Origin: Gammaproteobacteria bacterium
GTDB taxonomy: Bacteria; Pseudomonadota; Gammaproteobacteria; Burkholderiales; SG8-41
Length of the DNA stretch: 64,000 bases
Direction: 5' to 3'
Assembly (NCBI GenBank): GCA_041483135.1
Contig: JBGPFE010000009.1
Location: forward strand, 54,629 to 118,628
Below the pieces are notes generated by a model. The model was not told where the DNA came from, searched no databases, and saw nothing but the letters and a program-made list of their open reading frames with translations. Below are positions 11,933-32,216 of the stretch, piece by piece (the first letter of the stretch is position 1; each line of letters starts with the position of its first letter). Made by a program: the position numbers and the translations under genes.

Positions 11933-12065
11933 TCACCCTTGTCAAAGACGTGGCCGGCCGCCCGGAAGCCGGGCGCCGCAAGTGAGTCAGAGAATGGGGC
12001 AAACCGCGGCGAAAATCAACACGCCGCCTGCGTTCCGAGCGAGGCCGGTAGAATCCTTGCGCCGT

Positions 12066-12179
12066 TCACCGCTCGCGCCACGCATCATGCACGGTCTTTG
12101 GGATCGGAGACAGCAGGTATTCGATCACCGAGCGGTTGCCGAAATGGATCTCGGCTGCGACCTGCATGCCGGAGGTCAT
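12066..12179 (-). pseudogene. hlyD 3'-end remnant A (last 37 codons)
   Basis: Encodes MTSGMQVAAEIHFGNRSVIEYLLSPIPKTVHDAWRER*. By eye about 90% nt identity to the 3' end of intact hlyD (14871-14985). Confidence 0.85.
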
Positions 12180-12430
12180 TTCTTTGCGTTATCCATCCAC
12201 TCATGCATTTCACGATTTTCCTTTGCTGCTTCCCTGCGCCGCTCTCGGATAAACTCATCAACTAAAGATTTTTTCGTTCTGATACGCCTACGCACGAGCT
12301 GTTGCAAGCGCTTCAACATGCTCCTGCGAGTTAACATAGAGACGGTCATTGGAAGCGAGAATCAGATCAAGTTTGGAGAGAACGGATTTTAGATCAAATT
12401 GCTCCGCTTGCGTGGCGCAAACTAGACTGC
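12176..12430 (-). pseudogene. Frameshifted AbrB-type vapB-like antitoxin remnant
   Basis: One frame gives ...RRRIRTKKSLVDEFIRERRREAAKENRE..., compared with intact VapB IRRKRGKSLVDEFLAERRAETRRERAKR. The upstream frame gives LDLILASNDRLYVNSQEHVEALATA, compared with VVLILEPDSVRLMTHRAAIARAQ. Its TGA overlaps the ATG of remnant A. Confidence 0.6.
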
Positions 12431-12492
12431 TACCGCTCTGCACGATGGCTGTGGGACACCGGGCAGACTCAAGCGATGACGGAGCAGTATGG

Positions 12493-12521
12493 TTATGCTC
12501 TCTGCCCCAAACTGCTAGAAT
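12493..12521 (+). promoter_or_regulatory. Candidate extended -10 promoter for hicB-like gene
   Basis: TGcTAGAAT at 12513-12521, weak -35 TTATGC with a 17-nt spacer, about 26 nt upstream of ATG 12547. Confidence 0.4.
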
Positions 12522-12546
12522 GCGGCGAATCCGAACTCAGCGGTGC

Positions 12547-12729
12547 ATGTTTATGAAAACCTGCACCGCAGCGATCGAGCGCTGTCCGGATACCGGACTC
12601 TACGTCGGCTACATTCCCGGCTTTCCCGGCGCGCATTCGCAGGCCGCCACCCTGGATGAATTAGATGCTAATCTCAAAGAAGTCATCGAAATGTTGAGCC
12701 AGATCGAATCGCCGCGTATTGAATCTTAG
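12547..12729 (+). CDS. hicB: HicB-family (UPF0150) antitoxin-like protein, no adjacent HicA
   Basis: Trimmed from ORF 12349-12729. M(FM)KTCTAAIERCPDTGLYVGYIPGFPGAHSQAATLDELDANLKEVIEMLSQ matches the HicB N-terminal fold pattern (..Y.A.VP.LPGC.SQG.T.EEA..N..EAI). Confidence 0.7.
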   Translation: MFMKTCTAAIERCPDTGLYVGYIPGFPGAHSQAATLDELDANLKEVIEMLSQIESPRIES

Positions 12730-12741
12730 CAGGACGATTTA

Positions 12742-12927
12742 ATGACAAAGAGCGAGCTCAAAACCACACCTTACGATTCGGCGGAGTATCTTAGCGACGA
12801 AAAGGATATCGCCGTCTATCTTAATGCGGCGCACGAAGGCAATGATCCGGCGCTCATCCGCCATGCATTGAGTGTCGTTGCGCGGGCGCCAGGATTGCGG
12901 CGAGCGTCCATGAAGGACGAAGGGTGA
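12742..12927 (+). pseudogene. Truncated HigA-type 'addiction module antidote' protein (HTH half missing)
   Basis: MTKSELKTTPYDSAEYLSDEKDIAVYLNAAHEGNDPALIRHALSVVARA matches the N-terminal half of about 95-aa antidote proteins. The sequence then diverges and stops at 61 aa, abutting the RES gene 3' end. Confidence 0.6.
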
Positions 12928-12956
12928 TTTTCAGCAAGAAGTCCCTTCCTCGCCGC

Positions 12957-13424
12957 TCAATTCTTTTTCCACAGCCTTGGATCGAAAGAAAACGGCTCCG
13001 GTCGCAATACTTTTATGCGACTGAAATAGGGATGCCGGGGATTCAGAAGATAGTTGAACTCGTCTGCGACCAGCGCCGATGGAACTTTGAGCACCGCATG
13101 TCGCGCCGCGGCGCACCAACGGCTACCCAAATCCATGGTGGCGTCAATCGGAGGAGAGGATTTCCAGTGCCGGGGAAGAGTGGCGGAATCGACAGTTTCC
13201 AGGATCATATCGTCCGGAACTGTGGCGCGCACCGATACCAACGCTATCGCGGCGTCCCTGCGGCCCAGATGGACAAGGTACTCCAGCGCCGCGAGAGACA
13301 GCGTCGCGGCCGTGTATACGATCGGATGGCCCTTGTGATGCCAACGGCCTGAGGCATCCAGACCGCCTGTCCCTGAAAATACTGCTTTTGCGTATCGCTC
13401 CTTGCAGATCCTGTAGACGATCAT
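12957..13424 (-). CDS. RES-domain toxin (NAD+-targeting RES/ParT/MbcT family)
   Basis: Start trimmed to MIVYRICKERY... Contains GRWHHKGHPIVYTAATLSLAALEYLVH (R, E, S signature region). ATGA overlap with the upstream antitoxin (13421-13424). Confidence 0.88.
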   Translation of the reverse strand: MIVYRICKERYAKAVFSGTGGLDASGRWHHKGHPIVYTAATLSLAALEYLVHLGRRDAAIALVSVRATVPDDMILETVDSATLPRHWKSSPPIDATMDLGSRWCAAARHAVLKVPSALVADEFNYLLNPRHPYFSRIKVLRPEPFSFDPRLWKKN

Positions 13425-13861
13425 GCAACAAAGCCGTGCTCGATACGCTGCAGTTCTTCCTCCACCTCTCTCGTTCCTGCCTCGGTTTCGATCAGATCGA
13501 ATGGCATCCGATCCCCCAGGCCCGCCTGATTCGCGGACAGCCACTCCAGTGCCTGGCTCCGGCTTTCCAAAACCTCCTCGGCCAGCGCCACGATTTTGGC
13601 CGTGCGGTAGAGGCGGTCGCTCACCGCTGGCTTCATACGCGGGGTGCTTCGAAGGCCCACTAGCCGATCGATGGTCCGCGCGCTGACACCAAGCGCGCGC
13701 GACAGTATGGTGTTCGGAAGCTTGGTATTTGCTTTGAATTTCACGAAGACCTGCGAGCGGAAGCCGCGCCTGATCTCCTCATCGAAGTCCAGCTCGCGCT
13801 CCACCTTCGTCCCGATCACCCGCTCACCACCCAACAGATCGATTACGAGTTGTTCGCTCAT
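13421..13861 (-). CDS. Xre-type antitoxin with C-terminal DUF2384/ParS/MbcA toxin-binding domain
   Basis: 146 aa. HTH region LPNTILSRALGVSARTIDRL. C-terminal ALEWLSANQAGLGDRMPFDLIETEAGTREVEEELQRIEHG. Confidence 0.85.
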   Translation of the reverse strand: MSEQLVIDLLGGERVIGTKVERELDFDEEIRRGFRSQVFVKFKANTKLPNTILSRALGVSARTIDRLVGLRSTPRMKPAVSDRLYRTAKIVALAEEVLESRSQALEWLSANQAGLGDRMPFDLIETEAGTREVEEELQRIEHGFVA

Positions 13862-13895
13862 AGTGAACTCCGGACAGTGTCAGACATTTGTCGGT

Positions 13896-13924
13896 ATTAT
13901 ATACGTCATATGTCAGGGATGCAA
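13896..13924 (-). promoter_or_regulatory. Near-consensus sigma70 promoter of xre-RES, with operator-like palindromes just downstream
   Basis: Minus strand reads TTGCAT-17 nt-TATAAT. GACAgTGTC and GACAttTGTC palindromes lie at 13873-13892, between the -10 and the ATG. Confidence 0.6.
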
Positions 13925-13925
13925 A

Positions 13926-14105
13926 TTACCTCTCCCTCCACGCCTCGTGCACGGTCTTCTGGATTGGCGAGAGCAAGTATTCGATCACCGAGCGGTTGCC
14001 GAGCATGTCGACCGCCACAACGGCAGCGATTGCTGCGCCGTGCGCGAGCGCGAGGATCGCGGCCAGTATCGTCGAAAACCGCAGATTGATTCTCAGCGCC
14101 GACTA
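13926..14105 (-). pseudogene. hlyD remnant B (N-terminal TM-like segment fused to last about 24 codons)
   Basis: Encodes ...LRFSTILAAILALAHGAAIAAVVAVDMLGNRSVIEYLLSPIQKTVHEAWRER*. 27-nt and 25-nt blocks are identical to the intact hlyD 3' end. No start codon. Confidence 0.75.
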
Positions 14106-14155
14106 TGCATTCGTAAAAGGACGTCCGGACACATTATAGCTATGGCGCGCGCAGC

Positions 14156-14184
14156 TTGATTCCCTGAATATGGCCATTTATAAT
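14156..14184 (+). promoter_or_regulatory. Sigma70 promoter of phd-vapC module (possibly leaderless transcript)
   Basis: TTGATT (14156-14161), 17-nt spacer, TATAAT (14179-14184). ATG 14191 lies 7 nt after the -10. Confidence 0.55.
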
Positions 14185-14190
14185 ACACAA

Positions 14191-14436
14191 ATGGACATTT
14201 CAGTTACCGACTTCAAACACCGCTGTCTTGAGATAATCCGCAAAGTGGAGAAAACCGGCAAGCCTGTCACACTGACGCGCCGCGGCAAACCGGTTGCCCA
14301 TCTGGAAGCGAGCTCGGTGCATGGAGTCGCCAACAAGGCGAAGCCGTGGGAGCGCCTGCGCGCGCTGGGCGGCCGCCTGCTTGCCGGGCCGGGCGAGTCA
14401 GTGCTGCGCGACGAGGACTTCGAGGCGCTGCGCTGA
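14191..14436 (+). CDS. Phd/YefM-family antitoxin
   Basis: MDISVTDFKHRCLEIIRKVEKTGKPVTLTRRGKPVAHLE is a typical Phd/YefM N-terminus. The ORF-track start at 14170 lies inside the promoter spacer. Confidence 0.8.
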   Translation: MDISVTDFKHRCLEIIRKVEKTGKPVTLTRRGKPVAHLEASSVHGVANKAKPWERLRALGGRLLAGPGESVLRDEDFEALR

Positions 14437-14834
14437 AAGTACTGCTCGACACCCATGTCTGGGTATGGTGGCTGACGCCAAATTCGCCGCTGTCCGGCAC
14501 GGAACGTTCTGCGCTCGACACGAGCGCCGCGCGCCAGGGACTCTTTCTTTCAGCCGTGAGCCTGTGGGAGGCTCAGGTGCTGCACGCCAAAAATCGGTTG
14601 AAACTACCGTTGCCGTTCGCCGACTGGCTCCGCCGGGCAGCCGACGAGCGCATGATTTCAGTGGTGCCGCTCGATACGGACGTGATCCTTGCCCTCGATG
14701 CGCTGCCGGAAACTTTTCATGGCGATCCGGCTGACCGCTTGATTGTTGCTACGGCATGTGCACACAGTCTGCCGTTGGCCACTCACGATGCGGCAATTCG
14801 ACGCAGCCGCACCGTTACGCTCTGGAAACCGTGA
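14346..14834 (+). CDS. vapC: PIN-domain VapC-family toxin (start uncertain; conserved core begins about 14433)
   Basis: Core LKVLLDTHVWVWWL...FLSAVSLWEAQVL...DPADRLIVATA...LATHDAAI. The only in-frame starts are GTG 14346 (91-nt overlap with phd) or CTG 14433 at the position of a usual ATGA junction. Confidence 0.8.
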   Translation: MGAPARAGRPPACRAGRVSAARRGLRGAALKVLLDTHVWVWWLTPNSPLSGTERSALDTSAARQGLFLSAVSLWEAQVLHAKNRLKLPLPFADWLRRAADERMISVVPLDTDVILALDALPETFHGDPADRLIVATACAHSLPLATHDAAIRRSRTVTLWKP

Positions 14835-14870: not shown

Positions 14871-16244
14871 TCAGCGCTCCCGCCACGCCTCGTGCACGGT
14901 CTTCTGGATCGGGGACAGCAGGTATTCGATCACCGAGCGGTTGCCGAGATGGATCTCCGCCGCGACCTGCATGCCGGGGGTGAGCTTGTAGCGCAGGCCC
15001 TGCGCTTCGAGCTGCGATGAATTCAATGCCACGAGCGCGCGGTAGCTGAGGCTGGCTGGAGCATTCGCGCTGTCGGGCGGCGGCTTGCGGTCGCTGCTGG
15101 CATCCGCGTTCTTGTCGGTCGCGTCGTACGTGACATGACGCACCACTCCGTCGAGCATGCCGTACTTCTGGAACGGGTACGCTTCGAGCTTGATCTTGAC
15201 CTTCTGGTCGACTTCGACGAAGCCGGAATCGATGTTGCTGACCCAGACTTCCGCAAGCAAAGGCTCGTTGTGCGGCACCAGCGTCAGCAGCACGGTACCG
15301 GGAGATACCACCGTGCCCTGCGTATGCGTGGCGAGGTCCTTGACGATTCCGGCCTGCGGCGCCTTCAGCTCCAGCAAACCATGCTTGTATGTATTCTTCG
15401 CAAGCTCCTGGTTTAGCTTGCTGTACTGCGACTCGGCGTCGATCCGTTCGTTGTGCAACTGCTGCTGATAGTTGGAAGTGATCTGCGCGATGCGCTTGCT
15501 CGACTGCGCGATGGTCGCCTTGAGCGACTCGACGTTCTGGGTCTGCGCCTGCAGTTCCTGCTCGGTTTCGATGCGGCTGCGCGTGCGGTCGAGCGCCATC
15601 AGCTTGCCCGCGAACCCTTCCTTGGCGAGCTGGTTCCAGCCTTTTTCCTGCTCCTGGTAGATCGGCAGCGTCTGCTTGAGCTTGCTCTGCACTTCGATCG
15701 CGCTATTGAGATCGTGCTGCACTTTCGAAAGCGCCGCGCGTTCGGTGTCGAGCGCGTCCTGGTACGCCTGGCGGTGAGACCGAAACTGCGCGTCGACCTG
15801 CGCGTAAAGCGCCACGTCATCGCCTGCTTTTTTGGCGAGCGACACACCCTTGAGTTCCGCATCGATACGGCGCAGCTGCAGCACCCTCAACTGATAGTCG
15901 TTGTCGAGCACTTTGCGGTCCGCCACCGAAATGCTGGTGTCCATGCGCATGAGCGCCTGGCCGGCGACGACCTCGTCGCCTTCCTTCACCAGGATCTCCT
16001 TCACGACGCCCGAGTCCGCCGGCTGCACAACCTTGAGAAAGCTCTGCGGCACGAGCTTGCCCTGCGCGACCGCGACGATATCGAGCCTGCCGAACGTGGC
16101 CCAGACCAGCAACACTGCGAACAATGCCAGCAGCGCGTACAGAATCAGCCGCGGCAACGGCGAAGGCGGCGCGTGCTGCGCCTGCAGGATCGCGGGCGCG
16201 AAATCGAGCGCGTCGGCAGACAACTGCCGGATCCGGTTGATCAT
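14871..16244 (-). CDS. hlyD: HlyD-family T1SS membrane-fusion protein (HlyD type)
   Basis: Start trimmed to MINRIRQLSADALDFAPAILQAQHAPPSPLPRLILYALLALFAVLLVW.... Compare E. coli HlyD EFLPAHLELIETPVSRRPR followed by a TM helix. Long coiled coil. C-terminal LGNRSVIEYLLSPIQK. ATGA overlap with the vapC stop. Confidence 0.9.
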   Translation of the reverse strand: MINRIRQLSADALDFAPAILQAQHAPPSPLPRLILYALLALFAVLLVWATFGRLDIVAVAQGKLVPQSFLKVVQPADSGVVKEILVKEGDEVVAGQALMRMDTSISVADRKVLDNDYQLRVLQLRRIDAELKGVSLAKKAGDDVALYAQVDAQFRSHRQAYQDALDTERAALSKVQHDLNSAIEVQSKLKQTLPIYQEQEKGWNQLAKEGFAGKLMALDRTRSRIETEQELQAQTQNVESLKATIAQSSKRIAQITSNYQQQLHNERIDAESQYSKLNQELAKNTYKHGLLELKAPQAGIVKDLATHTQGTVVSPGTVLLTLVPHNEPLLAEVWVSNIDSGFVEVDQKVKIKLEAYPFQKYGMLDGVVRHVTYDATDKNADASSDRKPPPDSANAPASLSYRALVALNSSQLEAQGLRYKLTPGMQVAAEIHLGNRSVIEYLLSPIQKTVHEAWRER

Positions 16245-16621
16245 CGAATCAGTTCCAGATTGAAACGTTTTTTCAGCTTTGACCAGGCCCTGTCCGCCGT
16301 CAGAATGCGTCCTTTCAGATATTTGCCGGTCGCCAGGCACACGCGGTCCCCAAGCGACAGGCCGGCGCCGCGAATTCGTTCAAGACAACCCGCCTCGAAG
16401 GCGAGATCGGAATCGAGATCGAGCAGCTTCAGGCGCATGGCAAGTATCGAATTCCGCAGGGCGATGGTGTCAATCTCCCTGCGCGCAGCAAACCCAATGA
16501 CCTCGGCCAGATTCACGACGTTCATGTACGCCTGCTCGTCCATCGCGGCGGCGACTCTATCCGCCCCGTCCTCGCGCAGGATCAGCGCGAGCAACGCGGA
16601 CGCGTCGAGCACGAATATCAT
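16241..16621 (-). CDS. vapC: PIN-domain VapC toxin
   Basis: 126 aa. MIFVLDASALLA..., NLAEV, GDRVCLA, LTADRAW acidic-residue pattern of PIN nucleases. ATGA overlaps at both ends (16618-16621 with vapB, 16241-16244 with hlyD). Confidence 0.88.
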   Translation of the reverse strand: MIFVLDASALLALILREDGADRVAAAMDEQAYMNVVNLAEVIGFAARREIDTIALRNSILAMRLKLLDLDSDLAFEAGCLERIRGAGLSLGDRVCLATGKYLKGRILTADRAWSKLKKRFNLELIR

Positions 16622-16881
16622 CGCTTCGCGCGCTCCCGCCGCGTCTCGGCGCGGCGTTCAGCCAGAAACTCGTCAACCAGCGATTTGCCCCGCTTGCGCC
16701 TGATCGGCGCGCACAGAGTTTGCGCCCGCGCGATCGCCGCACGGTGCGTCATCAGCCTGACCGAATCCGGCTCCAGAATCAGCACCACGTCTTCCCCGGG
16801 ATTGATCGCCAGCGACCGCCGATACTCGGCTGGAATCACCACCCGTCCATGCGGACCCATCTTGATGTGTACCCTCGGCAT
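16618..16881 (-). CDS. vapB: AbrB/SpoVT-type VapB antitoxin
   Basis: Start trimmed to ATG 16881 with a GGGAG RBS. MPRVHIKMGPHGRVVIPAEYRRSLAINPGEDVVLILE is a swapped-hairpin AbrB-like motif. Confidence 0.82.
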   Translation of the reverse strand: MPRVHIKMGPHGRVVIPAEYRRSLAINPGEDVVLILEPDSVRLMTHRAAIARAQTLCAPIRRKRGKSLVDEFLAERRAETRRERAKR

Positions 16882-16940
16882 CGTTGCGCTCCCGTGTTGA
16901 TGTGTCAATTTTTTGTTATTAGGCCATAAATATAATAATC

Positions 16941-16964
16941 TGTCACTTATTTATAATAATGACA
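16941..16964. promoter_or_regulatory. Candidate VapB operator / promoter region
   Basis: TGTCA-N14(AT-rich)-TGACA inverted repeat. TATAATAAT occurs twice (16931-16939, 16952-16960) in the AT-rich gap upstream of vapB. Confidence 0.35.
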
Positions 16965-16982
16965 AATTAGCGCATTCCTGTC

Positions 16983-17019
16983 AAAAACGATGGGCGGACG
17001 CTGCGACGCGAAACCGCCC
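16983..17019 (-). terminator. Rho-independent terminator after the DUF3467-like gene
   Basis: Minus strand has GGGCGG...CCGCCC stem (17019-16992) followed by ATCGTTTTT. Confidence 0.55.
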
Positions 17020-17031
17020 CCGCCGGCGATA

Positions 17032-17385
17032 TCAGTGCTTGCTGTCTTTTTTCGCCGGCTCTGCCTTGGCCGCACCTTGCGCCTTGAGCCCGGCGACTAC
17101 CTGCCCCAGCTGCTGGTGCAGCGCGGCGAGCGTGTCGTAGCCGAGCGCAACGCGTACCGCGAGCTTGCCGGTCAGCGTCTCGGGAATTTTCCCGCCCGAG
17201 CGCGCGAGCTGCGACAGCGCCGCAAGCGCCGCCGGCTCGAGAAAACCGAAATCGACGAACACCATGCCCGGCGCGCCGTTGAGGCGCGTGAAGTTGGCGA
17301 GCACCGGCTGGTCGGAATTCCCGACCGGCGCGAGCCTGATGTTGAGGCCGACGGTTTTTTCCTGCTTTTCGTTCTGTTCTGCCAT
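17032..17385 (-). CDS. Small hypothetical protein, tentatively DUF3467-like
   Basis: Start trimmed to MAEQNEKQEKTVGLNIRL... (GGAAG RBS). The pattern LNI.L......LANFTRLNGAPGMVFVDFGFLEP....KLAVRVALGYDTLAALHQQL resembles DUF3467 (LNIEL..YSN...I.HS..EFV.DF....P...V..RI.L....AKRLL.AL). Confidence 0.7.
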   Translation of the reverse strand: MAEQNEKQEKTVGLNIRLAPVGNSDQPVLANFTRLNGAPGMVFVDFGFLEPAALAALSQLARSGGKIPETLTGKLAVRVALGYDTLAALHQQLGQVVAGLKAQGAAKAEPAKKDSKH

Positions 17386-17418: not shown

Positions 17419-17456
17419 CCCTTCACTCTTCACTCATTCACCCTTCACGTCACCTC
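17419..17456. repeat. Single array of TTCAC-containing 7/8-nt repeats
   Basis: TTCAC at 17422, 17429, 17437 and 17444, plus GTCAC at 17449. Lies between the giant gene stop and the next start. Confidence 0.7.
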
Positions 17457-20400
17457 AACCCAGTTTCACCAGCCCATCCTGCAATCCGGCGAGCGGCTGC
17501 AGGGTCTGCGGCGCGGAACCGAATTGCGCACTTGCCAATATGCTTTGCGCAGCATTAGTGGCAATGCCCGATAACGTTCCGTTCAACCCAAAGCGATACG
17601 CGAGATCGCCGCCGATAGCTTCAGTATCGCTGCCCGCGAGATGCGCATCGAGCAACGCGTTCATTACCGACCAGTGATTGGCATTGCTTGACGAAGCCGC
17701 CCGCGCCTGGTCGAATTTCTGCACGATCTTGCTGAAGTCGAACAGCTCGACTTTGTTGTCGCGCAACGTATCGGGGCCGCCCGGCGCGAAATCGCTCATC
17801 GCCTCGGCGATCACCTGCAGATTGAGCACGCTGCGGTTGTTCGCGTTCGCGTACCAATCCTTGAGCGTGACGTCTTCGTTGATCGCGGTCTGAAGCACAA
17901 GGCTGTTGCCCTGCTTGCTCAGGAACAGGTCGGCGTAGCGGATGCCGCCGCCGAGCGAGACCGTGTTGTCCTGCCCTGTGCTCGCCGCGACCGTGTCGTG
18001 GCCGTCGCCATGGTTGAACGCGATTACATCGGCGCCCGCGCCGGTCGTGATCGTGTCGTTGCCGGCTCCGCCAATGAACATCTCGTTGCCGGCGCCACCG
18101 GTCAGCGTGTCGTTGCCGTCTTTCGCGTAGAGCAGGTTGTTGCCGAATGCATCGGTCAATGTATCGTTGCCGTCATCGCCTTCGAGCAGGTCGTTGCCAC
18201 GGTCGCCGTTAAGCGCATCGTTGCCGCCGCCGCCGGCAAGGAAATCGTTACCGGCGCCGCCGAACAAGTCGTCGTTACCAAACCCGCCGAGCAGCACGTC
18301 ATCGCCGCTCGAAGCCCACAGCGCATCGTTGCCGTCGCCGCCGTCGAGCGTAACGTCACCGTAGGCGTAGTCCTGACTCGTCAGATCGATCACATCGTTG
18401 CCGGCGCCGCCTTCGATGCGCTCGATGCCGGAAATCCGCGGCACGCGGGTGCCGCCGGGGAATGCGCTGTAGCTATCGTCCAGCGCCAATACGTCATCGC
18501 CGCTCGTGCCGGTGAGCGTATCGTTGCCGCTGCCGCCATTGAATACATCGAACGAACGGTTCTTGCCGGCGATCACCGCGGTTTTATTGGTACTCGGATT
18601 TCCCGGGCTGCCGTCGTTGCGCGCGACAAACCCGCCATTCCATTTGCCGTCCGCATAGTAGATAAACCCATCGTCGCCGCCATTGCCGTTCAGCAGGTCC
18701 GTATTGCCAAGCCCATTCAGCGTGTCGTTGCCGGGCCCGCCGTTCAGCACATCGGGGTTCGGCGTGCCGACGAGGTTCAGGCCGCTACCCGTGCCGACCG
18801 TGACGTTGAATACATCGGATGCGCTCAGGCTGCCGCTATCAGTTGCGCCGACCTTGATCGATAACACCCCCGCGTCGGCGGCTGCCGGTGTACCGCTGAA
18901 GGTACGGGATGCAGCGTTAAATGCCAGCCACGACGGCAGCGGCGAGCCATCGGCCGACTGCGCGCTGTAGCTGAGCGTGTCGCCAATGTCGACGTCGGTA
19001 AACGTGTTGGCTGCGAACTGGAAGGCGAATGACGATCCCGCCGTGGCCGTCTGGTCCGCGATGGCATTCGAGAGCACCGGCGCATCGTTGGTGTTGGCGA
19101 CGCTGATATCGAAGGTATCGAACACCGAGGCGCCCGCAGTATCGGTCGCGGTGACCTTGATGCTGACGGCGCCAACGTCCGCATTCAGTGGCGTGCCGGT
19201 AAAAATGCGGGTTGCGGCATTGAACGTCAACCATGACGGCAGCGCACTGCCGTTGGCGCGCATGGCCGTATAGCCGAGTGTGTCGCCCACGTCCACGTCC
19301 GCGAACGTGTTGTCCGGAATCGTGAAACTGAATGCCGCGTCCTCGGTTGCTGCCTGGTCTGCAATAGCAGTGGCCAAAATCGGCGCATCGTTCGAATTGG
19401 CGACCGCCACGTCAAAAGTATCGAACGCGGAGGCGCCTGCCGTATCGGTTGCGGTCACCTTGACGCTTACCGTCCCGACGTCGGGATTCAACGGCGTGCC
19501 GGTAAAAGTATGGGTTGCGGCATTGAACGTCAGCCACGACGGCAGCGCACTGCCGTCTGCACGGTCGGCACCGTATGTCAGCGTGTCTCCCACATCAATA
19601 TCGGCGAACGTATTGGCTGGCAGCGTAAAGCTGAACACGCTGTCCTCGGTCGCCGCCTGATCCTCAATTGCGGTAGCCAGCATCGGCGCGTCGTTGGTGT
19701 TGGCTATCGTCACGTCAAACGTGTCGAACGCCGACGCGCCAGCTATGTCGGTTGCCGTGACCTTGATGCTCGCCGTGCCGACATCGGCGTTCAGCGGCGT
19801 TCCTGAGAACGTGCGCGTCGCTGCGTCGAACCCGAGCCAGTCCGGCAATGCCGATCCATCCACCGCCACCGCGCTGTAAGTCAAGGTATCGCCAACATCT
19901 ACATCGCTGAACGTGTTGGCAGGCAGCGTGAAGCTGAATGCGCTGTCCTCGCTTGCCACCTGATCCGCCATCGCATTGGCGAGAATTGGCGCGTTGTTGG
20001 TGTTGATGACTGTTAAATCGAACATATCAGTAGCGTTGAGGCTGCCTCCATCAGTCGCCGTGAGTTTGACACTGAACGTGCCGACGTCGTTGTTACCAGG
20101 CGTGCCGGTAAACGTTTCTGTCTCTGGATTAAACGCAAGCCATGCCGGGAGCGTTGAATCGTCGCTGAGCGAAACGGACAGCGTAAGCGTGTCACCAGCA
20201 TCCACGTCGGTAAACGTACCGACAGGCACAGTGAAATTGAATTGTGCATCCTCCAGCGCGCTCTGGTCGGAAACTGGGTTCGCCAACACCGGTTGGTGAT
20301 TTAAGGCAGTGCTGGTCACTGTTAGCTGGAACGTATCGGGTATCACGTACGTCCCAATGCTGGCGCCCGATACCTTCTCAGCAGCAGTAACCTTGACATC

Positions 20401-23400
20401 GATCGTACCGACATCCGTGCTGCCGGGCGTGCCGCCGAACGTCCGAGAATTACCGTCGAAGGTCAACCAACCGGGAAGCGCGCTACCGTCGGTCAGGCTG
20501 GCGGCATAGGCGTAGTCATGGCTGGAATCGAGGACATCAAAAAATGCGGTTGTCGAAAACTGTAGATTGAATGCGCTGCCTTGTGCGACGGTTTGATTAC
20601 CGATAGGGTCGGGTAGTGTGTGCAAGACGCCGGATGCGGCGCCGTTTGCCAATTGCTCGAGAGTTGTCGAATCCCAATACGAATGATCGGCAAATTGAAC
20701 ACGCTCTACGGCATAGCCAGAAAGCGGAAACCAGCGAATTGCCAGTTGGTCCTGAGTACCGTTGATTCCTATGTATATGTTGTCGTCGTCCCGCGTGATA
20801 GCCAGATCGGTTGAGGAGATGCCATCGCCCAACGCAATCTTGTCGAAATTCCCAAGATTCAGATCAAAATCGATAATAGAATCCTGGCCTGACCCGCGAC
20901 CGAATACATACGTGTCATTGCCCGCGTTCCCGCTTAACTTGTCGTTGCCGGCTCCACCATCCAGCACATCGTTCCCGTCCCATCCAAACAAGCTATCGTC
21001 GCCGCCGGATCCATTGACAATATCGTTACTGAATGTTCCGTAAAAGACATCAGAGCCGCTTGTAGGCAGAAACGCCTTGGCGTACAGATTATTGACTTGC
21101 CAGACTGTCCCGTCGCTGAATCGGACCTGCTCGACGTTATCTCCCTCGAAATCATTCAATGAAACTGAGAACCAGTGATCCAATATGACCTGATCGCTCG
21201 TGCCGCTGAGTGTAAGGAACAGCCGTCCCGCATTTGTCGAGGGCGGGTCGGCGGAAACAATGATATCTGCCGGTGCGATAGTAGCGCCGAACTCAATCGT
21301 GTCGACGCCTCCTGAACTATCACCCCTGTCGGAAGTAAAGCTGCGCGCGGTAAGGCCTGAAGGCGGTGCTTCGACGACCAGATCGTTCCCGAATCCGCGA
21401 TCGAAGCGGTAGACATCGTCGCCGAGGCCGCCATAGAGATCGTCGTTGCCGGGACCGCCTATCAAAATATCGTTGCCATCTCCCCCGTACAGGAAGTCAA
21501 CTCCATTCCCACCGGCAACGATATCGTTGCCCGCATCGGCAGCAATGCGATCGTTGCCGTCGTCCCCGGATAAATTGTCGTCACCATCACGGCCAGAAAT
21601 GTAGTCGTTTCCTGCGAGTCCCGCGATGACATCAGAGCTCGTAGTTCCGGAGAGAAAATCATTGCTAGCGCTGCCGATAGTATTCATGCGATTGGCCAGA
21701 TCGCTGAAGGACCAGCTAGTCCCGTCGCTGAATTGGACTGACGCTGGAATTGCAATGCTCGAAAGTCCACCCAGCGATGCGAGCCCGTTCTTGATCGTGA
21801 TCCGATCGGCGCCGGCCCCCACGATAATATTCAGATCGCCACTAGCGAAGCTATTGAATGTCGAAGTGATCGTTGCGGTCAGTTGGACATCTGCCGGAAG
21901 GATTCCGGTACCGAAAAAGATGCTGTTAGAACTGGCGGCGGTGCCGGTGCCACTACTATCCTGGTAGGTGTCCTGGCCGAAGCCGGGATTAAATATGTAG
22001 CGGTCATCACCGTCTCCGCCACGTAGCGTGTCATTGCCTGAGTTGCCCGTAATTGTGTCGTTGCCCGAGGCACCGGTTATTGTGTCATTGCCTGCCAGCC
22101 CGTCAATGACGGCATCCTTAAATGACGACGTAGTGGAAGCATTTATCGTGTCATTCCCGTTCGTTCCCGTGATGTAGTTTCTGTAATAGTCGGCAAGGTC
22201 CCACACTGTTCCATCGGAGAATTCAGCTCGCTCAACCCGATTTGCGCCAGGACTCGCAACCAGGGAAAGACGGTCGCTGCTACCGGCAAGATTGAAAAAA
22301 ACATGCGAGGCATCACCACTAACCGATATATCTTGCGGCCGAACACCCGCTGCGAAACGGATGGTATCTGTGTCGGTGAAGAATACCCCTTGACTGTACA
22401 GTTCATCTATTGTGTCGCGCCCCGAACCGTACCCAAATAAATAAATGTCATCGCCCTGCTCTCCCCAGAGCGTATCATCACCGGCTCCGCCATCGATTAT
22501 GTCGTTCCCGTCGCCGGCAAAACACTGATCGTTGCCGGCCTCGCCAAACAGAACATCATCCCCGGCCTCGCCCGTAAGCATATCGTTGCCGCTGCCACCG
22601 CTCAGTGTGTCATCACCATCCCCGCCATATAACCGGTCAATACCCGAGCCCGCCGCAAGTACATCGTTACCGTCGTTTCCCTGAATCGTGTAATCGCCGC
22701 CATCGACAGTGATCGAGTCGTCCGTTGATAGCCCATATAGATAGGTCCGGCCACTGATAATCAAAGGTCCGCTTGCTTGACGAATGTAATCCAGATCCCA
22801 TACCGTTCCATCGCTGAAATCCAAGGTGAAGCCGTCATCGCCGCGAAAGAGCGCGTCATACAGCATGATCTGATCTGTTGTGCCTTGGTGGTACAACGTG
22901 ATGACTTGATTGACGTCCGGGGCCCCGACAATAATATCGGCGGGCGCAATCCCGGCACCAAACACCAGCTTGTCCTGCCCTAACCCGCCGCCGAAATAAT
23001 CGTCGCTAATAATATCCTGCCCCCAACCCGCCTCGAAGAGCATTGTAGTGACCCCCGCGGCACCGCTGAGGAAGTCATTCCCCGCGCCGCCTTCGAGATA
23101 GTCATCTCCTGCACCGCCGATGAGAGTATCGTCGCCGCCGTCACCGTAGAGCAGATCATTCCCGTCGCCGCCTTTGAGCGTGTCGTTTGCGCTGCCTCCA
23201 AATAGTGTGTCATTCCCAGCTTGCCCGAGCAGCCGATTACTTTTGCTATCGACGGCAAGCACATCATCGGACGGTGTTCCCGAAATCGCTCCTCCGGATT
23301 CCAGCAATGCGTATTCGAGACGTTGTGCCACATCGTCTGGCGTGAGAACTGTGCCGTCGGCAAATACGAACCGCGAGATAGAAACATTCTTTGAAAATGT

Positions 23401-26400
23401 CGGATCGAACCACGACGTGATATTCAGTTCGTCATCAGTGCCGCGTATCCTGATACGTAATGAATAAGGGTCCACATTGGAATCGGACGTAGTCAATTCA
23501 TTACGCGTGAACATCACGTCATCAGGAGACACGCCAGTTTTGAAAATTACGGCGTCTTTCGTATAGTTCACACCGTTCGAAGTGCTGTCGATAACATCAT
23601 GGCCTGAACCCAACCCAAAGAGATACGTATTGGCGCCGGTGAAGCCGACTAACTTGTCGTCGCCTGGTCCGCCATCCAGGATATCGTCGCCACGGTCACC
23701 TTTGAGCGTGTCATTGCCGTTGCCGCCAAGAAGAAAGTCATCACCGATCCCGCCCACGAGTGTGTCGTTACCATCACCACCTTTGACTACATCGTTACCG
23801 CCGTTGCCGAAAATACTGTCATCCCCTCCCCCGCCATCCAGTCGGTCATCGCCCGCCTGCCCTATCATGAAGTCGGTGCCGCTGGTCGCGTTTTGCGCGG
23901 CAAACCACTTTTGCGTCAGGACTTGCTCGTTCCAGACCGTCCCGTCGGCGAAACGGACTTCCCTGATTGAATAGATCGGTGTGGCTACACGGGGCGGCGT
24001 TTCGATTTCGCCATACCAACTGAGAATCTTCAGCTGATCTGCGCCGCCGTTGAGTGAAAGAATCAGATTGTCCCGACCAGTAGCTGAATACGAGGGATCG
24101 ACGTCAGTAATAACAGTGACATCCGACGGTTGAACGCCCGGCAGCATCTGCACCACATTTCGTATAGTCCCGTAACCCGCGTTGCCGGATCCAGTGCTGA
24201 AATAGTCAAAAACCTGAACGGTGTCATGACCATAACCGTTGCCGAAAACTATCGTGTCGTTACCTCGGGAGCCGGAACTCACACCATCAAAAATGGTGTC
24301 GTCTCCGGGGCCACCGTCATGGGTATCTGCCCCCGGCGAACCGTTCAACTGGTCGTTGCCGTCACCGCCGCGAAGTGTACCCGTGCCGAAAAGTCGGTCG
24401 TCGCCATCGCCGCCCAGCAAAACGTTGATGCCTTGCAAATCGCTCAGGAGATCGTTTCCAGGCCCGCCATCCAGCGTGTCATTGCCGGTACTGTCGGAAA
24501 GGGTATCGTCGCCGCCCATGCCGGACAGAACGTTGTCGCTTGCATTGCCGCTGATAGTGTTATTTACCGCGTTGCCGGTGCCGACGCGCGCCGTGCCTGT
24601 AAGCGTCAATTTCTCAATTTCTCCCGACAATACATAATCACTGCTCGCTTGCACCTCATCGGTGCCCTCGCCTGGCAGTTCGGTCGCTACGTCGCTAGGA
24701 TTGTCGACTTTATAGATATCATTGCCGGGTCCGCCCACCATGGTGTCGATACCCGTTCCCCCGTCGAGAGTATCGTTCCCGCCTTGTCCTTCGAGTATGT
24801 CGTCGCCGGCCCCACCGGTAAGCGTATTCGGGTTCGCATTCCCGATGATGTGATTATTGTCAGCGCCGCCGCTCCCTGCCGTTGCCGACCCCGTAAGAAT
24901 CAAATCTTCGACGTTGGCCGACAACGCGAAGCTAACGCCGGCTTGTACGGTGTCATGACCTTCGTTCGCATTTTCGATTACGGTGTCGAAACCATTGTCG
25001 ACGATGTAATAATCATCGCCTCGACCTCCGCGCATCTGATCGAATCCGGTCCCGCCATCGAGCCGATCGTTGCCGTCCAGACCGTTCAGGATATCGTTCC
25101 CACCGAGACCCTCGATTTGATCGTCAGCTGGCGAACCCGTTAGCGTGTCATTGCCCGCCGTACCCTGGACGACTGTCAGCGCCTGGGCCAATAACGCGCT
25201 TCCGCTTAGCGTTGTCCCATCGGCAAACTCGTAGCTCTCGATTTGGATGCCGTCGGAAATATACAAACTATCACTGGTGCCGTAAGAAACCCTAAGCCAG
25301 GTTGCCCCTAATCCTTTTGTGGCGACAAGAGAGTTTGCAGTAATTCCCGGGCCAAAAACAACGCGGTCATTGCCGCCTGCGTCATCGGTGAGTTGGTCAT
25401 TGCCATCCCCGCTATTGAACAAGTAGGTATCGTCGCCGCTCTCCCCAATCAAAACATCATTGCCCGTACCGCCGATGAGCGTGTCATCGCCGGCTCGCGA
25501 CTGAATGAAGTCATTGCCGCCTTTGGCGTCTATGAAATCGGGATCGTTGACGCCGAACAGCACATCATCGTTACTGGTGCCGACGACGTTAAATCCAAGA
25601 CTCAGCAATTCTTCGTAATCAAGGCGCGTGCCGTCGACGAATTCGAAGAACTCTATCGTGTGTGGTCCGTGGACATCGTTTGGATCGACAGTTTCAAGAT
25701 GAATGGCATCGCCCTGATCGCCGACGTGGATGAGCAGCGACCCCCCTCCCAGCGACAGAGAATCCGGTGTAATGCCCTCTCCGAAAATCAGCGTATTGGG
25801 CGCACCGGAAGTGGACATGTCAGTAATGTGATCGACACCGTCGCCCAGATTGAACAGGTAGGTGTCGTTGCCGTCGCCACCGGTCAGCGTGTCGTTGCCG
25901 CGGCCTCCCGAGAACGTATCGTTGCCGCCGTTGCCGGTGAGCGTGTCGTCGGCCGTGCCGCCCATCAGATTGTCATCGCCAGCGGTGCCGGACAGATTCT
26001 GTGGCGTGATCAGGGTGTGGCCGAGGAACTGCGCCCAGGTCTCGACACTGCCGTCGGCGTATTCGACCGACTCGATGTTGCCCTGCAAGCCATCCTTGAC
26101 CGCGATGGTGTCGGTCGCAGTATATTGAATGCCTAAATACTGCGGATTTTCTTCTGGAACGAACGTGATAATGCTGGATGCCGATATGCCATCGCCGAAT
26201 TTGATGCGATCGACACCCCCCTCGTCTTCCAGCGTGTCGTTGCCATCACTCGCGTTGAAGCTATAGACATCGTCGCCAACTCCGCCCAACAGCGCATCGT
26301 TGCCGGAGTCACCCGCAAGCTGGTCGTTGCCATCTCCACCTTCGAGCTGATCGTCTCCTGTCCCTCCGAATAAAGTATCGTTGCCGCCGAATCCCTGGAG

Positions 26401-29400
26401 TACGTCGTTGCCCGCTTCCCCATCGAGGTAGTCGTCACCCTGGTAGGCAACCGGGATGTTGTCGCCGTCCCCGGCCATCTGGTCATCGCCATCACCACCG
26501 AAGAGGGTGTCGCTGCCGCCCTGACCGAGCAGGATGTCGTTGCCCGTGCCGCCATCGAGATAATCGTCACCGTGAAATTGGGCGTCGAGCAAATTACTGT
26601 CACCAGACAGCTGATCGTTGCCGTCGCCGCCGAAGAGGGTATCGTCGCCGCCGTCGCCGAAGAGCTTGTCGTCCCCCGCTTCGCCGTCGAGATAATCGTC
26701 GCCGTGAAATTGCTGGGCGAGCAGATCGTGGTCCCCGGAAAGCTCGTCGTTGCCGTCGCCACCGAACAATGTGTCCGACCCGCCCTGGCCGAACAGAAGA
26801 TCATCGCCGCCTTCGCCGTTGAGATAGTCCGCGCCGTCCGCCTGTGGATCGGAGTAGACAGCGCTGCTGACATCGTACGTCGCGGTGTCGCCGAGCAAGA
26901 CATCGTTGCCATCGCCGCCGAACAGCGTGTCGGCATCTTCCTGACCGACGAGCCGGTCGACGCCATCGCCGCCCAGCAGCAGATCGTCACCGGCGCCGGC
27001 CCAGATCACATCATCGCCGGCTCCGCCATCCAGCACATCGCTTTCATCCCCCGCCGCGCGCGGATCGCCGCCAAAGCCCGTGAACGAATAGAGCGGCGCA
27101 TCCGGCGTGCCCGATTGGATCACCGTCCAGCCCTGGCCTTCAGCTACGACGTTCCCGGTGTGGATGCCGCCAACGCCAACGGCAGTGTACCCATCCCCCC
27201 CAAACAGAAAATCGTTGCCGTCGCCGCCATTGATTACGTCGGAACCGGCGCCGCCAGCGGCAACATCGTTGCCTTCGTCACCGGTCAGGTAGTCATCATC
27301 TGCGCCACCTTGCAGCGCATCATTGTCGAGACCGCCATAGAGCTCGTCGTTGCCGCCGGAGGCGATCAGGATGTCGTTGCCTTCTTCGCCATATAGGTAT
27401 TGGTCACCATCATCGTTGGTGATGATGTCGTCGCCAAGTCCACCCCAGCCTTCGGCCTGCGCAAGGCTTACGCTGATGCGATCATTGCCACCAAAGCCGA
27501 ATATTTTTTGCAGGAATGAGGTGCTGGTAAGAGTGTCCGCGCCTTCCGTGCCGTCAAGTTCCGTTTTTTGAAGGGGATCGGGAAACAAAAGATGGATGCC
27601 GAGTTCGCCATCATGAAAATTCTGAACTACAACTTTTTCCGGGCTGCCGTCCTTGGTGATCGTCAATATTCCAGGGGAGTTTACTTTGCCCGTAAATTGA
27701 TACTGAAATCCGTTGCTATCCTGAAACTTCTTCGGGTCGTCGCCGGGCACCGCACTCTTGTCTCCGGTCAAGTCCTGGCCCTCAACAACGATCTTGCCCT
27801 GACCATCCCCCGCGCTCTGAGAGTTCAGCAATCCGGCGTAATCGATAATTTCATCGCTGTCCGAGCTGCGCTCGACAATATAAGTATCGAAGCCGCTGCC
27901 GCCCCGTATTACATCCTTACCCGATCCACCAGTGAGCGTGTCGTCACCCGCGCCGCCATCCAGGGTGTCGAAGCCACGCCCACCCACCAGCGTGTCAGAG
28001 CCGGTGCCTCCCGATATCGAGTCATAACCGTCATCGCCCTCGATGTAATCGTCACCGAATCCACCGCTGATCGTGTCTCCACCTCCGCCACCATACATGT
28101 GGTCATTCGCAATTCCACCGTTGATCGTTTCAGCGTTATCGCTACCAAAGATGAAACGATCGACTCCGATATTAGGACCGAAGGTGATTTTTCGTGGTAT
28201 GTCCTCAAAGTGAGCCTGGACTTGCGCTGAAAGCGCTCCGTCTACGCGGTTATAGCGAATATAGTTTGCCAACATCGTGGCTCGATCTTCGAGCCATTTA
28301 TCTGTAAGAGTGCCGCTGTCGTTGTTTACATCGTAAAGATTAAGTTCACCGCTCGCGTTGTGCTGCGTATAGATCGTGTTGTCGCCAACAATGGCAAATG
28401 GGTTAAGTTCCCTGAGCGCATAGCGGTACCCAAGCGCTTCCGAGCCTTGGGCGATATTGGAAAGATCGGTGGCATTGGTGCCAACAAGACTATCCAAGAA
28501 CAACGACGGGTTGGCTTTAACTAGATTTTCTAGCTCAAGCAATTTGTCAAAATATTTCCTGCGACCATTAATGTCGCCAGCACCGATTCCAGACAAACTA
28601 GATGCGTCTACCAACGGTAAGTCGGTTAAGCCTGTTGTCCGGTTTCCGAAGACTTTGTAGAGCGCATCAACCAGCTTTTCCTGGGTATCCTTGGCCTGGC
28701 GCGAGGCCGCCTCGAAAAGCGCGGTCATGTCTGAAAGTCCAAGCGCGTTGTTCATCCGGTACAACAGCGCTTGCAGCGCGAGGCTGTCCATAAACGGTTC
28801 AATCAGGTGGCTGTTGGCCTCGGTTGCAACCGGCTGCCGTGGACTTAAAGCTGTATCGTTGGTAATAACGCTTGATACTATGTTTATATCATCTCCGGGC
28901 GCCTCATCCTCGCTCTCGAAGTTGTGAATCGGAAGTCCATCAAACGTTGACGTTGGCGGCGTACCCAGGAAACGCCCGAAAAGGTCCACCAACTCATCGG
29001 TAAGTTTAAACGGTGCTGTGCCAATGGCAGTCGCAATCCCAGCAACGGGACTGCGGGAAAGAACTCCCACAAGGGTTCCCAGAATGACACTCGAATATTC
29101 TGGGTCAAACCCGGGAGCGTTGTATGTGTAAGCATCCTTCACTAAATCTGGAAACAATCTCGCGGCGAGTGCCGCGAGGTGTCCGCCCAAGCTGTGCCCA
29201 GTGACAACGATTTGTTCTCCAGAACCAATAAGATTCAACCCTTGCCCGGTGAAGTTTGGAGTGAAATACAAATACGCTGCACCGCCTCGCAATGGAATGC
29301 TCGGTAGGATGGAAGGTTGGGTTGTAGATACATTCCATTGAAGCTGAAGAACGTCCGTCTTAGTCTCAGGTGCTCGTAACCGCAAAATGAAATTGACCAT

Positions 29401-29823
29401 CGATACCGCTTGCGATAGCGCAAGACCGATGAAGCCTATCTGAGCGAGATCAGCAGCAAATAGGTCGAGCCCCAGTTGGGTCGTCGGTTCGGTTCCTCGA
29501 AATGCAAGCACTTTTTCACTCGTTCCACCAGATTGACGTTGGAAAAGGATTGCAGCAAAACCAGTTCCGTCATTTCCGTAGTAACCATTACGATTAGGGC
29601 CGAAGTCTGGGATGGCCCAGACGGGCTGGCTGCTGGCTTTGGCTTGGTCGGAGTCCTTGTCGAATGTCTGGTTCGCTAGCGCTGATGGAATGCGTTTCTG
29701 ATCGTCTGCATTTGCAAGCCTAGCAACTGTCGCGCCATCGAGAGGTTGTCCATCCAGAATCACGTAGGCAGCGGTGGCGAGCTTGGAAAACTCGTAGTAA
29801 TCAAGAATATTGGGCATGGCCAT
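17455..29823 (-). CDS. Giant (4122 aa) T1SS-type protein: N-terminal class-3-lipase-like alpha/beta hydrolase, RTX blocks, haemolysin-type Ca-binding-related modules, six cadherin-like repeats
   Basis: GHSLG nucleophile elbow (Ser211, nt 29191-29193) followed by YTYNAPGF. Many GGxGxD runs. About 11 modules of type Y.F..G.G.D.I.D......I.F..GI...D. Repeats NDAP(I/V)L...D.D.GDTL.Y......LP.WL.F....TF.GTP. No signal peptide. The likely true start is the second ATG (29817), 6 nt after AGGAGG. Confidence 0.93.
18790..20615 (-). repeat. Six tandem about 300-bp coding repeats (cadherin-like/dystroglycan-type domains)
   Basis: For example, attgaacgtca(a/g)cca(t/c)gacggcagcgcactgcc recurs at 19219 and 19519 (period 300). 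The protein repeats are about 100 aa each, and the first is divergent. Confidence 0.9.
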
Positions 29824-29827: not shown

Positions 29828-30556
29828 CTAACGTGGGCTAGCGGGTACTAATACATAGTGGTAAAGCAAATACCGAAGTTCAGGCGGCTTCGGTGCAGTT
29901 CCCTTGCAGGTAACCGCTCCACTCCCAAAAAATCGAACCCACAGACTTTCTACCCAACCCAGATAACGAGTGTAATGAATGTCACGGGCAATAACTTCAC
30001 CGGTCTGCGAATCAACTACGATGTCTTCTGTCTTCTCTAGTTTTAAGCCGACGGGTACCTCCTGACGTGGATCGGCAAACCTGTAGTGATACCTTGCCGT
30101 AGGATGGTCCAGGACGGTAATTCGCCATGTCCCGTCTGGATACTTTTCAAGGTGAGATATCTTTCCAGGCGCACTGCCAGATACACTCGTGTTCCTCTCC
30201 CTGAACCGGAATCCAGCTTTTTCATATTCGGCAACAAGCTGCTTATCCGTCACAATCTCCGCTTTGCTCCAGCCAGTAGTCGTGGCATCGTAATAGCCAT
30301 CCACCTCCACCTTGCGTGTAACATGCACCCCAGCGTCCTCGCAAAGCTTAGAGAACTGCCAAGCAATCCAGAACTCATCAGCATAGGGAAGGATCAACAG
30401 AATCAGCGCTAATGTACCGATCACCGATCCGCGCCACGGTTTTGCTGCCCATGCCAGCCACAACGGTCGCAATACGAATTTGTAGACAACAACCCATAAC
30501 GCTCCGGCAATGGCCAAGCCAATGGGATAGATTTGCAGAGCCTGCCAATAACTCAT
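29828..30556 (-). CDS. Hypothetical two-TM membrane protein
   Basis: 242 aa. TM helices [21 protein letters not shown] and [15 protein letters not shown], then a soluble domain of about 170 aa with no motif I recognise. Its TAG stop lies inside the RBS of the giant gene. Confidence 0.75.
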
Positions 30557-32140: not shown

Positions 32141-32153
32141 AACCCGGCGTAAG

Positions 32154-32169
32154 GGGGTCAGGTCTTGAA
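32154..32169. repeat. Third, partial copy of the REP-like repeat
   Basis: GGGGTCAGGTCTTGAA, same orientation as the 30583 copy. Together with 31494-31517 it brackets the lipoprotein gene. Confidence 0.7.
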
Positions 32170-32216
32170 ATATCACTTTTATCATTTCGATTGCCCCGCT
32201 TGATTGATCACTTTGC

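Follow-up and report, generated by a model that had tools for sequence, protein, structure and literature searches.

We analyzed a stretch of 64,000 nucleotides from a Gammaproteobacteria bacterium of the order Burkholderiales (contig JBGPFE010000009.1 of assembly GCA_041483135.1, positions 54,629 to 118,628), hereafter called the window. In it a toxin-antitoxin (TA) gene pair, vapB-vapC, stands directly upstream of hlyD, the gene for the periplasmic adaptor of a type I secretion system (T1SS). The reading that we favor, with a probability of about 0.6, is that a functional, autoregulated VapBC module is lodged at the 5' boundary of hlyD, that vapB, vapC and hlyD would form one transcription unit, and that the module has spread by recombination. 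On the minus strand the genes follow the order hlyB, three small genes, an RTX gene, orf117, a 150-nt spacer, vapB, vapC and hlyD. The window belongs to a metagenome bin of betaproteobacterial character. The same hlyD sequence with the same neighbors is also found on three JGI contigs and in GCA_041491195.1.

The vapB-vapC-hlyD genes and their upstream region

The three genes are as follows.

16618-16881, minus strand: vapB, antitoxin of 87 aa with the AbrB/MazE/SpoVT DNA-binding fold
16241-16621, minus strand: vapC, toxin of 126 aa, PIN-domain RNase
14871-16244, minus strand: hlyD, T1SS periplasmic adaptor (membrane fusion protein, MFP) of 457 aa

The preliminary description of this DNA had named these genes correctly, as judged from the domain matches in Pfam and NCBIfam. 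VapB matches PF04014 (E=2e-6) and, over its cut-off, the NCBIfam model TIGR01439 (AbrB; 28.6 bits). The likely start of vapB is the ATG at 16881, which has a GGGAG Shine-Dalgarno (SD) sequence 7 nt on its 5' side. The gene had been thought to begin at 16908, and that coordinate has to be given up, being the TTG of a mechanical open reading frame (ORF). VapC matches the PIN family PF01850 (E=6.4e-15; 56.3 bits against a cut-off of 23.6) and none of the NCBIfam models. Its acidic residues D6, E40, D92 and D110 are invariant in an alignment of 9 sequences (alignment A3), and a profile built from that alignment matches M. tuberculosis VapC30 (4xgq; E=0.001). HlyD scored 330.5 bits against TIGR01843 (cut-off 208.65; residues 29-457), and the Pfam families HlyD_3 and Biotin_lipoyl_2 also match.

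We calculated the ratio of nonsynonymous to synonymous substitution rates (dN/dS) against relatives, and obtained values of 0.12-0.21 for vapB, 0.10-0.19 for vapC and 0.13-0.21 for hlyD. These ratios indicate that vapB and vapC are both under purifying selection. Because the values of the two TA genes (0.10-0.21) are similar to those of hlyD, and because the catalytic acidic residues are invariant, we read the module as functional. The pair most likely belongs to type II, with an AbrB-type antitoxin and a PIN RNase toxin. That is, it has a PIN toxin within the range of about 120-140 aa, conserved acidic residues, and a small upstream DNA-binding antitoxin whose gene overlaps that of the toxin. 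VapC would be toxic, for which the purifying selection on both genes gives indirect evidence.

The stop codon of vapB and the start codon of vapC share the tetranucleotide ATGA at 16621-16618. In the same manner vapC and hlyD share ATGA at 16244-16241, where the last codon of vapC and its stop (CGA TGA) contain the ATG of hlyD. Both overlaps lie exactly where they had been placed before. The N-terminus of HlyD, MINRIRQLSADALDF, is common to the vapBC-linked hlyD genes of L087 and L088 (the loci used for comparison bear L numbers), and 6 of the 8 codons that follow the ATG (codons 2-9) show only synonymous differences from L087, the residues being kept. Because the differences in codons 2-9 are mostly synonymous, the ATG inside ATGA is most likely the true start of hlyD. 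The possibility of a start elsewhere, which had been raised previously, was rejected on the basis of this pattern and of the N-terminal alignment.

The SD sequence of hlyD is only weak (GGAA at -13 to -10). Since the SD is weak and the ATG is formed from the last codon and the stop of vapC, HlyD would be made by termination and reinitiation after VapC, and a lesser part by independent initiation. Promoters and terminators were called by consensus scans. The scan, which covered the sigma-70 consensus only, predicted no promoter on the minus strand inside vapBC, so that an internal sigma-70 promoter driving hlyD, the other doubt raised at the outset, was set aside. On the plus strand, a sigma-70-like match at 16279-16306 (TTGACC-16-CAGAAT, 9/12) runs antisense in the 3' part of vapC near the hlyD start; this could be chance or could give an antisense transcript. 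We also considered a conserved RNA helix that would hide the hlyD start until vapC is translated. The long-range helix predicted at the hlyD start of the window gave z=-1.15 and a consensus energy of -6.7 kcal/mol with an unfavorable covariation term, and we retain this weakly supported candidate as no more than an idea.

The spacer upstream of vapB holds the following features.

16903-16983, minus strand: operator-like array of four TGACA/TGTCA half-sites (16983-16979, 16964-16960, 16945-16941 and 16907-16903)
16918-16946, minus strand: candidate vapBC promoter, -35 GTGACA (16946-16941), 17-nt spacer, -10 CCTAAT (16923-16918)
16956-16984, minus strand: second, window-specific sigma-70-like promoter, TTGACA, 17-nt spacer, (TG)CATTAT, 10/12 match
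16983-17024, minus strand: GC-rich hairpin and then AUCG-UUUUU, 3' of the orf117 stop, possibly a terminator of a weak or non-canonical kind

The GC content is 0.33 over 16882-16985, compared with 0.59-0.65 in the flanking genes. Four boxes occur within 105 nt, with spacings of 19, 19 and 38 nt, where about 0.12 boxes are expected (Poisson P of about 8e-6). The palindrome TGTCA-N14-TGACA at 16964-16941 occurs once in the 64 kb, against 0.03 expected, and the inverse TGACA-N14-TGTCA at 16983-16960 likewise once, against 0.00 expected. The AT-rich region with its palindrome, as first described, is thus present, and the palindrome is unique in the window. Motifs of TGACA/TGTCA with N14 spacing are found 5' of vapB also in L088, L091 and L087 (one mismatch). 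They are found as well 5' of a module with a second type of VapC (type B, described below) in L175, and in the distant relatives L134, L109, L126 and L143. The boxes form an operator-like pattern, such as one would expect for a VapB of this family.

The -35 element of the candidate vapBC promoter coincides with one of the half-sites. In the alignment, L087, L088 and L091 have at the same place a -35 of GTGACA or ATGACC, a 17-nt spacer and a -10 of CATAAT. The second promoter overlaps boxes 1 and 2. We therefore suppose that transcription would begin from a sigma-70 promoter whose -35 element lies inside the half-site array, and that VapB or the VapB-VapC complex may be expected to bind this array. 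Because the operator-like boxes overlap the conserved -35 and -10 elements and recur 5' of vapB in relatives, it is plausible that the autoregulation by VapB would reach hlyD.

The terminator described earlier behind orf117 was borne out in part. The hairpin and the U-run are present, and the hairpin is absent from the relatives that have no vapBC. However, the terminator scan made no call at 17024-16983, and the fold (-24.1 kcal/mol) is ordinary for its composition (z=-0.69). A canonical intrinsic terminator after orf117 was rejected on these two grounds.

Import, recurrence and loss of vapBC at the RTX-hlyD junction

Two further features mark the extent of the insertion.

17032-17385, minus strand: orf117, 117 aa, marking the left edge of the insertion
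16190-16244, minus strand: imported 5' segment of hlyD, about codons 1-18, as delimited by identities in 60-nt windows

The arrangement had at first been treated as native. Our comparison points instead to an imported block. In L085 and L086, whose hlyD is 93% identical to that of the window, orf117 lies only 8 nt 5' of hlyD and no vapBC stands in between. In L005, L008 and L009 (hlyD identity 71-79%) orf117 is again directly before hlyD, with gaps of 14-35 nt. The tblastn search gave identities of 79-89% for the orf117 that adjoins hlyD in these five loci.

The hlyD gene of the window is itself a mosaic. When the codon alignment was read in windows of 60 nt, its first 60 nt were 57% identical to L085 and 75-76% identical to L087 and L088, whereas from about nt 60 on the identity to L085 was 90-98%. 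The first 55 nt or so (MINRIRQLSADALDFAPAI) resemble the vapBC-linked hlyD genes, and the L085-like part begins at the conserved CCCGCGATCCTGCAGGCGCAGCAC. Because the 5' end of hlyD is mosaic in this way, the promoter, vapB, vapC and about 18 codons of hlyD must have arrived as one block, which most likely recombined between orf117 and hlyD with its right-hand crossover in the conserved DFAPAIL codons of hlyD. The mosaic, together with the direct succession of orf117 and hlyD in L085, L086, L005, L008 and L009, rules out a native, ancestral arrangement at this locus. No transposase or integrase gene lies between orf117 and hlyD. The module thus has the features of a TA islet, namely a mosaic flank, no adjoining mobile-element gene and a patchy phylogenetic distribution.

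The same junction was found at other loci. In L087 and L088, VapC is 79% and hlyD 68-75% identical to the window genes, and vapC and hlyD overlap by ATGA. In L089/L090 the overlap is again ATGA, although the identities fall to 60% for VapB, 54% for VapC and 54% for HlyD. Every close relative of VapC that was found has hlyD next to it with an overlap of 4 nt. The type B VapC, which is 36% identical to the window VapC, overlaps hlyD by ATGA in L172 (ATTCGATGA); in L174, a locus that carries frameshifts, it overlaps by GTGA and is joined to the other N-terminal type of hlyD. These recurrences in L087, L088, L089/L090, L172 and L174 speak for an overlap that is more than chance, and a one-off recent insertion of no wider meaning was rejected because of them. 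Judged from the alignments, this junction has been kept through deep divergence, as far as about 54% protein identity. It recurs in several soil and groundwater bacteria that are only distantly related, an unusual durability for a selfish element of a kind that normally moves about.

The AbrB/PIN pairs of type B lie at 2-623 in L085, 1-282 in L172, 7744-8375 in L174 and 193-838 in L175. In L085 the pair sits before orf117-hlyD, and in L175 it comes directly after the RTX stop. Because the hlyD of L172 combines an L087-like N-terminus with a window-like body, an exchange of TA alleles at the RTX-hlyD junction is suggested.

Two control sets were examined. Among 78 generic VapC relatives from metagenomes (34-47% identity; stand-alone pairs), none was followed by hlyD. 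In five of the 78, ATGA occurs at the stop codon, and none of these opens an ORF of more than 18 aa. The junction is therefore not a general property of the VapC family, since no generic relative has hlyD or any real gene at such an overlap. For the other set we took 80 hlyD loci of other species with identities of 50-79%, and about 72 of them could be evaluated. There tblastn found no vapBC upstream of hlyD in any of the roughly 72; what precedes hlyD in these loci is hlyB, orf117 or an RTX gene. The 24 upstream ORFs that were small or unassigned were scanned with Pfam and showed no PIN or antitoxin domain, so that a TA of another type immediately 5' of hlyD was dismissed for other species as well. 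The survey for hlyD genes preceded by PIN/AbrB pairs that had been proposed for this DNA thus gave a divided answer: the arrangement recurs in some lineages, but the evaluable loci of other species are without the pair.

The module has also been lost. L013 and L171 have one scar in common, where the RTX stop and the hairpin ('...gcagcatga') run straight into the final 47 nt of vapC, after which come ATGA and hlyD. The scar of L173 is another one, with only about 24 nt of vapC retained and hlyD intact. The VapC and HlyD trees that we made are rough neighbor-joining (NJ) trees with no support values; in the HlyD tree the scar loci fall into one clade with L087 and L088. It follows that vapBC was probably ancestral there and underwent at least two independent deletions. 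The tail of vapC, in which the initiation region of hlyD lies, is kept in every scar, and because of this position a clean loss of vapBC seems to be constrained. The reverse case is L091, where an intact vapBC has beside it no more than a fragment of the RTX 3' end and the first four codons of hlyD; vapBC probably persists without hlyD in L175 as well. Since the scars keep hlyD without vapBC and L091 keeps vapBC without hlyD, neither partner requires the other. In the NJ trees, the A and B types of VapC form separate clades, and the vapBC-positive loci stand at 3-4 separate positions of HlyD.

From these observations we propose that the module may behave as a selfish element that favors one site, namely the RTX-hlyD junction in the T1SS operons of betaproteobacteria, and that it would spread by homology in the conserved flanks. 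It would persist through addiction, and also because only those deletions that spare the vapC tail would keep hlyD expressible.

Surrounding genes and the downstream TA cluster

The larger genes of the secretion locus are these.

17455-29823, minus strand: RTX protein, 4122 aa
32217-34349, minus strand: hlyB, ABC transporter with ABC_membrane and ABC_tran domains

HlyD is thus encoded alongside a T1SS ABC transporter and an RTX substrate in the window. HlyB scored 618.8 bits against TIGR01846, which is under the curated cut-off of 725.55. Between hlyB and the RTX gene, at 30587-31453 (minus strand), lies a gene for an IS200/Y1-transposase-like protein with a C-terminal helix-turn-helix (PF01797, E=5e-14). 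It is flanked by genes at 29828-30556 and 31529-32248, both without a family match. The orf117 product had no match in Pfam, NCBIfam or PADLOC. In this clade orf117 is always found between the giant RTX gene and hlyD, and we regard it as a candidate T1SS accessory factor. Searches of Rfam, PADLOC and, with single sequences, PDB gave no matches.

Downstream of hlyD, its 3' end is present three times on the minus strand: the true end at 14871-14981, a copy of 72 nt at 13932-14003 (93% nucleotide identity, ending in TAA) and a copy of 117 nt at 12060-12176 (89%, ending in TGA). The homology among them stops right after each stop codon. Copies 1 and 2 enclose a phd/PIN pair, and copies 2 and 3 enclose xre/RES together with a HicB-like/HI1420-like pair. 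It seems that TA cassettes were inserted one after another at the stop codon of hlyD and that each of them duplicated the gene end. Duplicates of the hlyD 3' end are found downstream also in L009, L014 and L047. The GC content is 0.49-0.59 over 12100-14400, the region of this TA cluster, against 0.65-0.70 in the flanking hisD and ABC genes, a drop that would suit a foreign origin of the cassettes. In the convergent phd/PIN pair, the PIN gene (14433-14834, plus strand) ends 37 nt from the hlyD stop. It is an ORF of 133 aa here, compared with 85-92 aa by gene callers on identical contigs, and its start and intactness are uncertain.

Related systems, alternative readings and meaning

Canonical VapBC modules, for example Shigella mvpAT/VapBC and M. 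tuberculosis VapBC30, are bicistronic and end after the toxin, as did all 78 of the generic VapC relatives sampled. The module described here resembles them in its AbrB-type antitoxin 5' of a PIN toxin, its ATGA overlap, the operator-like palindromic half-sites over its candidate promoter and its acidic PIN residues. It differs from them in that an unrelated secretion gene of 457 aa starts within the toxin stop codon, at a junction that is conserved. In tripartite TA systems, such as TAC (a HigBA-type TA with a SecB-like chaperone) and paaR-paaA-parE, the product of the third gene serves the TA itself as chaperone or regulator. Here, too, a toxin-antitoxin pair is part of three cistrons that would be translationally linked, but the third gene is a T1SS adaptor, and TA and hlyD each survive alone: vapBC occurs without hlyD in L091, and hlyD without vapBC in L013, L171, L173 and about 72 other loci. 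In RTX operons of the E. coli hlyCABD type, a terminator after the substrate gene attenuates the transcription of the transport genes. The window is similar in that a hairpin comes after the substrate gene and a transport gene lies farther downstream in the same orientation. It is dissimilar in that hlyB stands upstream of the RTX gene with only hlyD downstream, and in that a putative TA promoter, rather than control by antitermination, stands between the hairpin and hlyD.

According to Belot et al. 2026 (PMC13617665), TA islets integrate by homologous recombination at flanking core genes, and their linkage to neighbors is usually short-lived. A spread of our module by way of conserved flanks agrees with this model. 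The module shares with these islets the lack of an adjoining mobile-element gene, the mosaic flank, the patchy distribution, the frequent deletion and the clustering of several TAs. Unlike them, it is linked to one host gene down to about 54% protein identity, and the linkage is physical, through a shared start/stop tetranucleotide. A full-text literature search returned no description of a vapBC-hlyD or TA-T1SS operon fusion.

Several points weigh against the reading that a selfish, recombining VapBC module transcribed together with hlyD occupies this junction. The comparative loci are metagenome assemblies. The left junction, from the orf117 stop to the hairpin, has no recognizable homology arm, so that the recombination model is borne out on the right side only. 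The transcription unit, the binding of VapB and the coupling are predictions from the DNA sequence, and an internal hlyD promoter of a type other than sigma-70 would be compatible with our scan. The NJ trees do not appear to separate several transfers from an ancient presence with many losses. The synonymous divergence (dS) of the window genes from L087 has about the same magnitude in vapB, vapC and hlyD, and part of the pattern could thus be vertical. In the scar lineages hlyD is intact, which suggests that the initiation region can work without coupling to vapC. Finally, an association kept down to 54% identity seems to fit a benefit to the host at least as well as pure selfishness.

Such a benefit would exist if the host had co-opted the TA as a domesticated regulator, which gives hlyD a VapB-gated, stress-responsive promoter independent of the upstream 12-kb RTX gene. 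Adaptor supply, and hence secretion capacity, would then track antitoxin stability and growth state. The long co-divergence of vapBC and hlyD seen in L089 (60%, 54% and 54% for VapB, VapC and hlyD) would be understood in this way, as would the purifying selection on both TA genes, the presence of two VapC types at the same junction with ATGA or GTGA, and the overlap of the operator-like array with the promoter; the upstream hairpin with its U-run could insulate hlyD from RTX transcription. Nevertheless, we consider domestication unlikely, as most hlyD orthologues, even those of 93% identity, work without a TA, vapBC was deleted at least twice with hlyD kept, vapBC stands without hlyD in L091 and, as seems probable, in L175 too, and the hairpin upstream in L087 and L088 is not followed by a U-run. 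A still bolder version, to which we give only a small chance, holds that this VapBC lineage is a dedicated, heritable control cassette for type I secretion, in which VapB operators gate hlyD and translation of the toxin licenses that of the adaptor. The long co-divergence and the two VapC types at one junction would argue for some benefit or for a strong mechanistic bias, while the lack of a TA at most hlyD orthologues and the survival of hlyD in the scars would argue against the necessity of such wiring.

TA-stabilized islands, integrative and conjugative elements and superintegrons are documented elsewhere, for example by HipAB on CGI48 of Shewanella (PMC8978831) and sgiAT on SGI1 (PMC5006074). 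By analogy, vapBC and the neighboring TA pairs might be kept since loss of the T1SS/RTX locus, or of its end, is lethal, which would stabilize a costly and deletion-prone region. The preliminary description had proposed such an addiction. As in those cases, TA genes here lie within or at the edge of accessory DNA with several pairs clustered; at least three further TA-type sets (phd/PIN, xre/RES and HicB-like/HI1420-like) lie at the other end of hlyD, and in L091 the TA outlived its neighbors. Set against those islands, however, the window shows no integrase or excision machinery, the association is with one precise junction rather than with island ends in general, and in the compared loci DNA has been lost on either side of the TA. 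A TA can guard only such DNA as does not disappear unless the TA goes with it, yet the scars in L013/L171 and L173 show vapBC itself cleanly removed with hlyD kept, and L091 shows the reverse, the RTX gene and hlyD being lost and vapBC staying. In addition, most orthologues have no TA, and chromosomal TAs do not conserve neighborhoods according to Belot et al. 2026 (PMC13617665). We therefore think that addiction of the island end is very improbable.

We attach equally little weight to a merely coincidental adjacency, in which ATGA is a by-product of the family ending ...IR* (CGA TGA) and hlyD uses its own signals, unconnected to the TA. That ending is indeed family-wide, a chance ATGA closes the gene in 5 of 78 unrelated members, and the scar lineages indicate that hlyD is expressible without translation of vapC. 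But the two genes leave no space between them, and no internal promoter was predicted. The overlap is kept in at least five diverged lineages and with two VapC types. No generic ATGA overlap opens an ORF of more than 18 aa, the junction came into the window locus as a single block, and the deletions always spare the vapC tail.

Taken comprehensively, this is a VapBC lineage that shares a start/stop tetranucleotide with a host gene, carried the 5' end of hlyD when it moved, and leaves scars when it is lost. Chromosomal TA pairs, by contrast, are commonly regarded as self-contained units of two genes that stay linked to their neighbors only for a short time. The lineage offers a genetically tractable case for the question of whether chromosomal TAs are purely selfish or are wired into host operons as regulators. 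It also suggests a simple route by which a selfish module may resist deletion, that is, by hosting the initiation region of a useful gene. If the lineage were a dedicated control cassette, assembly of the secretion channel would be tied to antitoxin turnover and VapC activity, for instance in stopping or priming the export of a giant RTX adhesin under stress, and the two VapC types would have converged on the same 4-nt junction because the wiring was selected. For the biology of the T1SS, the finding means that in some bacteria the synthesis of the adaptor may no longer be coupled to the giant substrate gene but may answer to an antitoxin.

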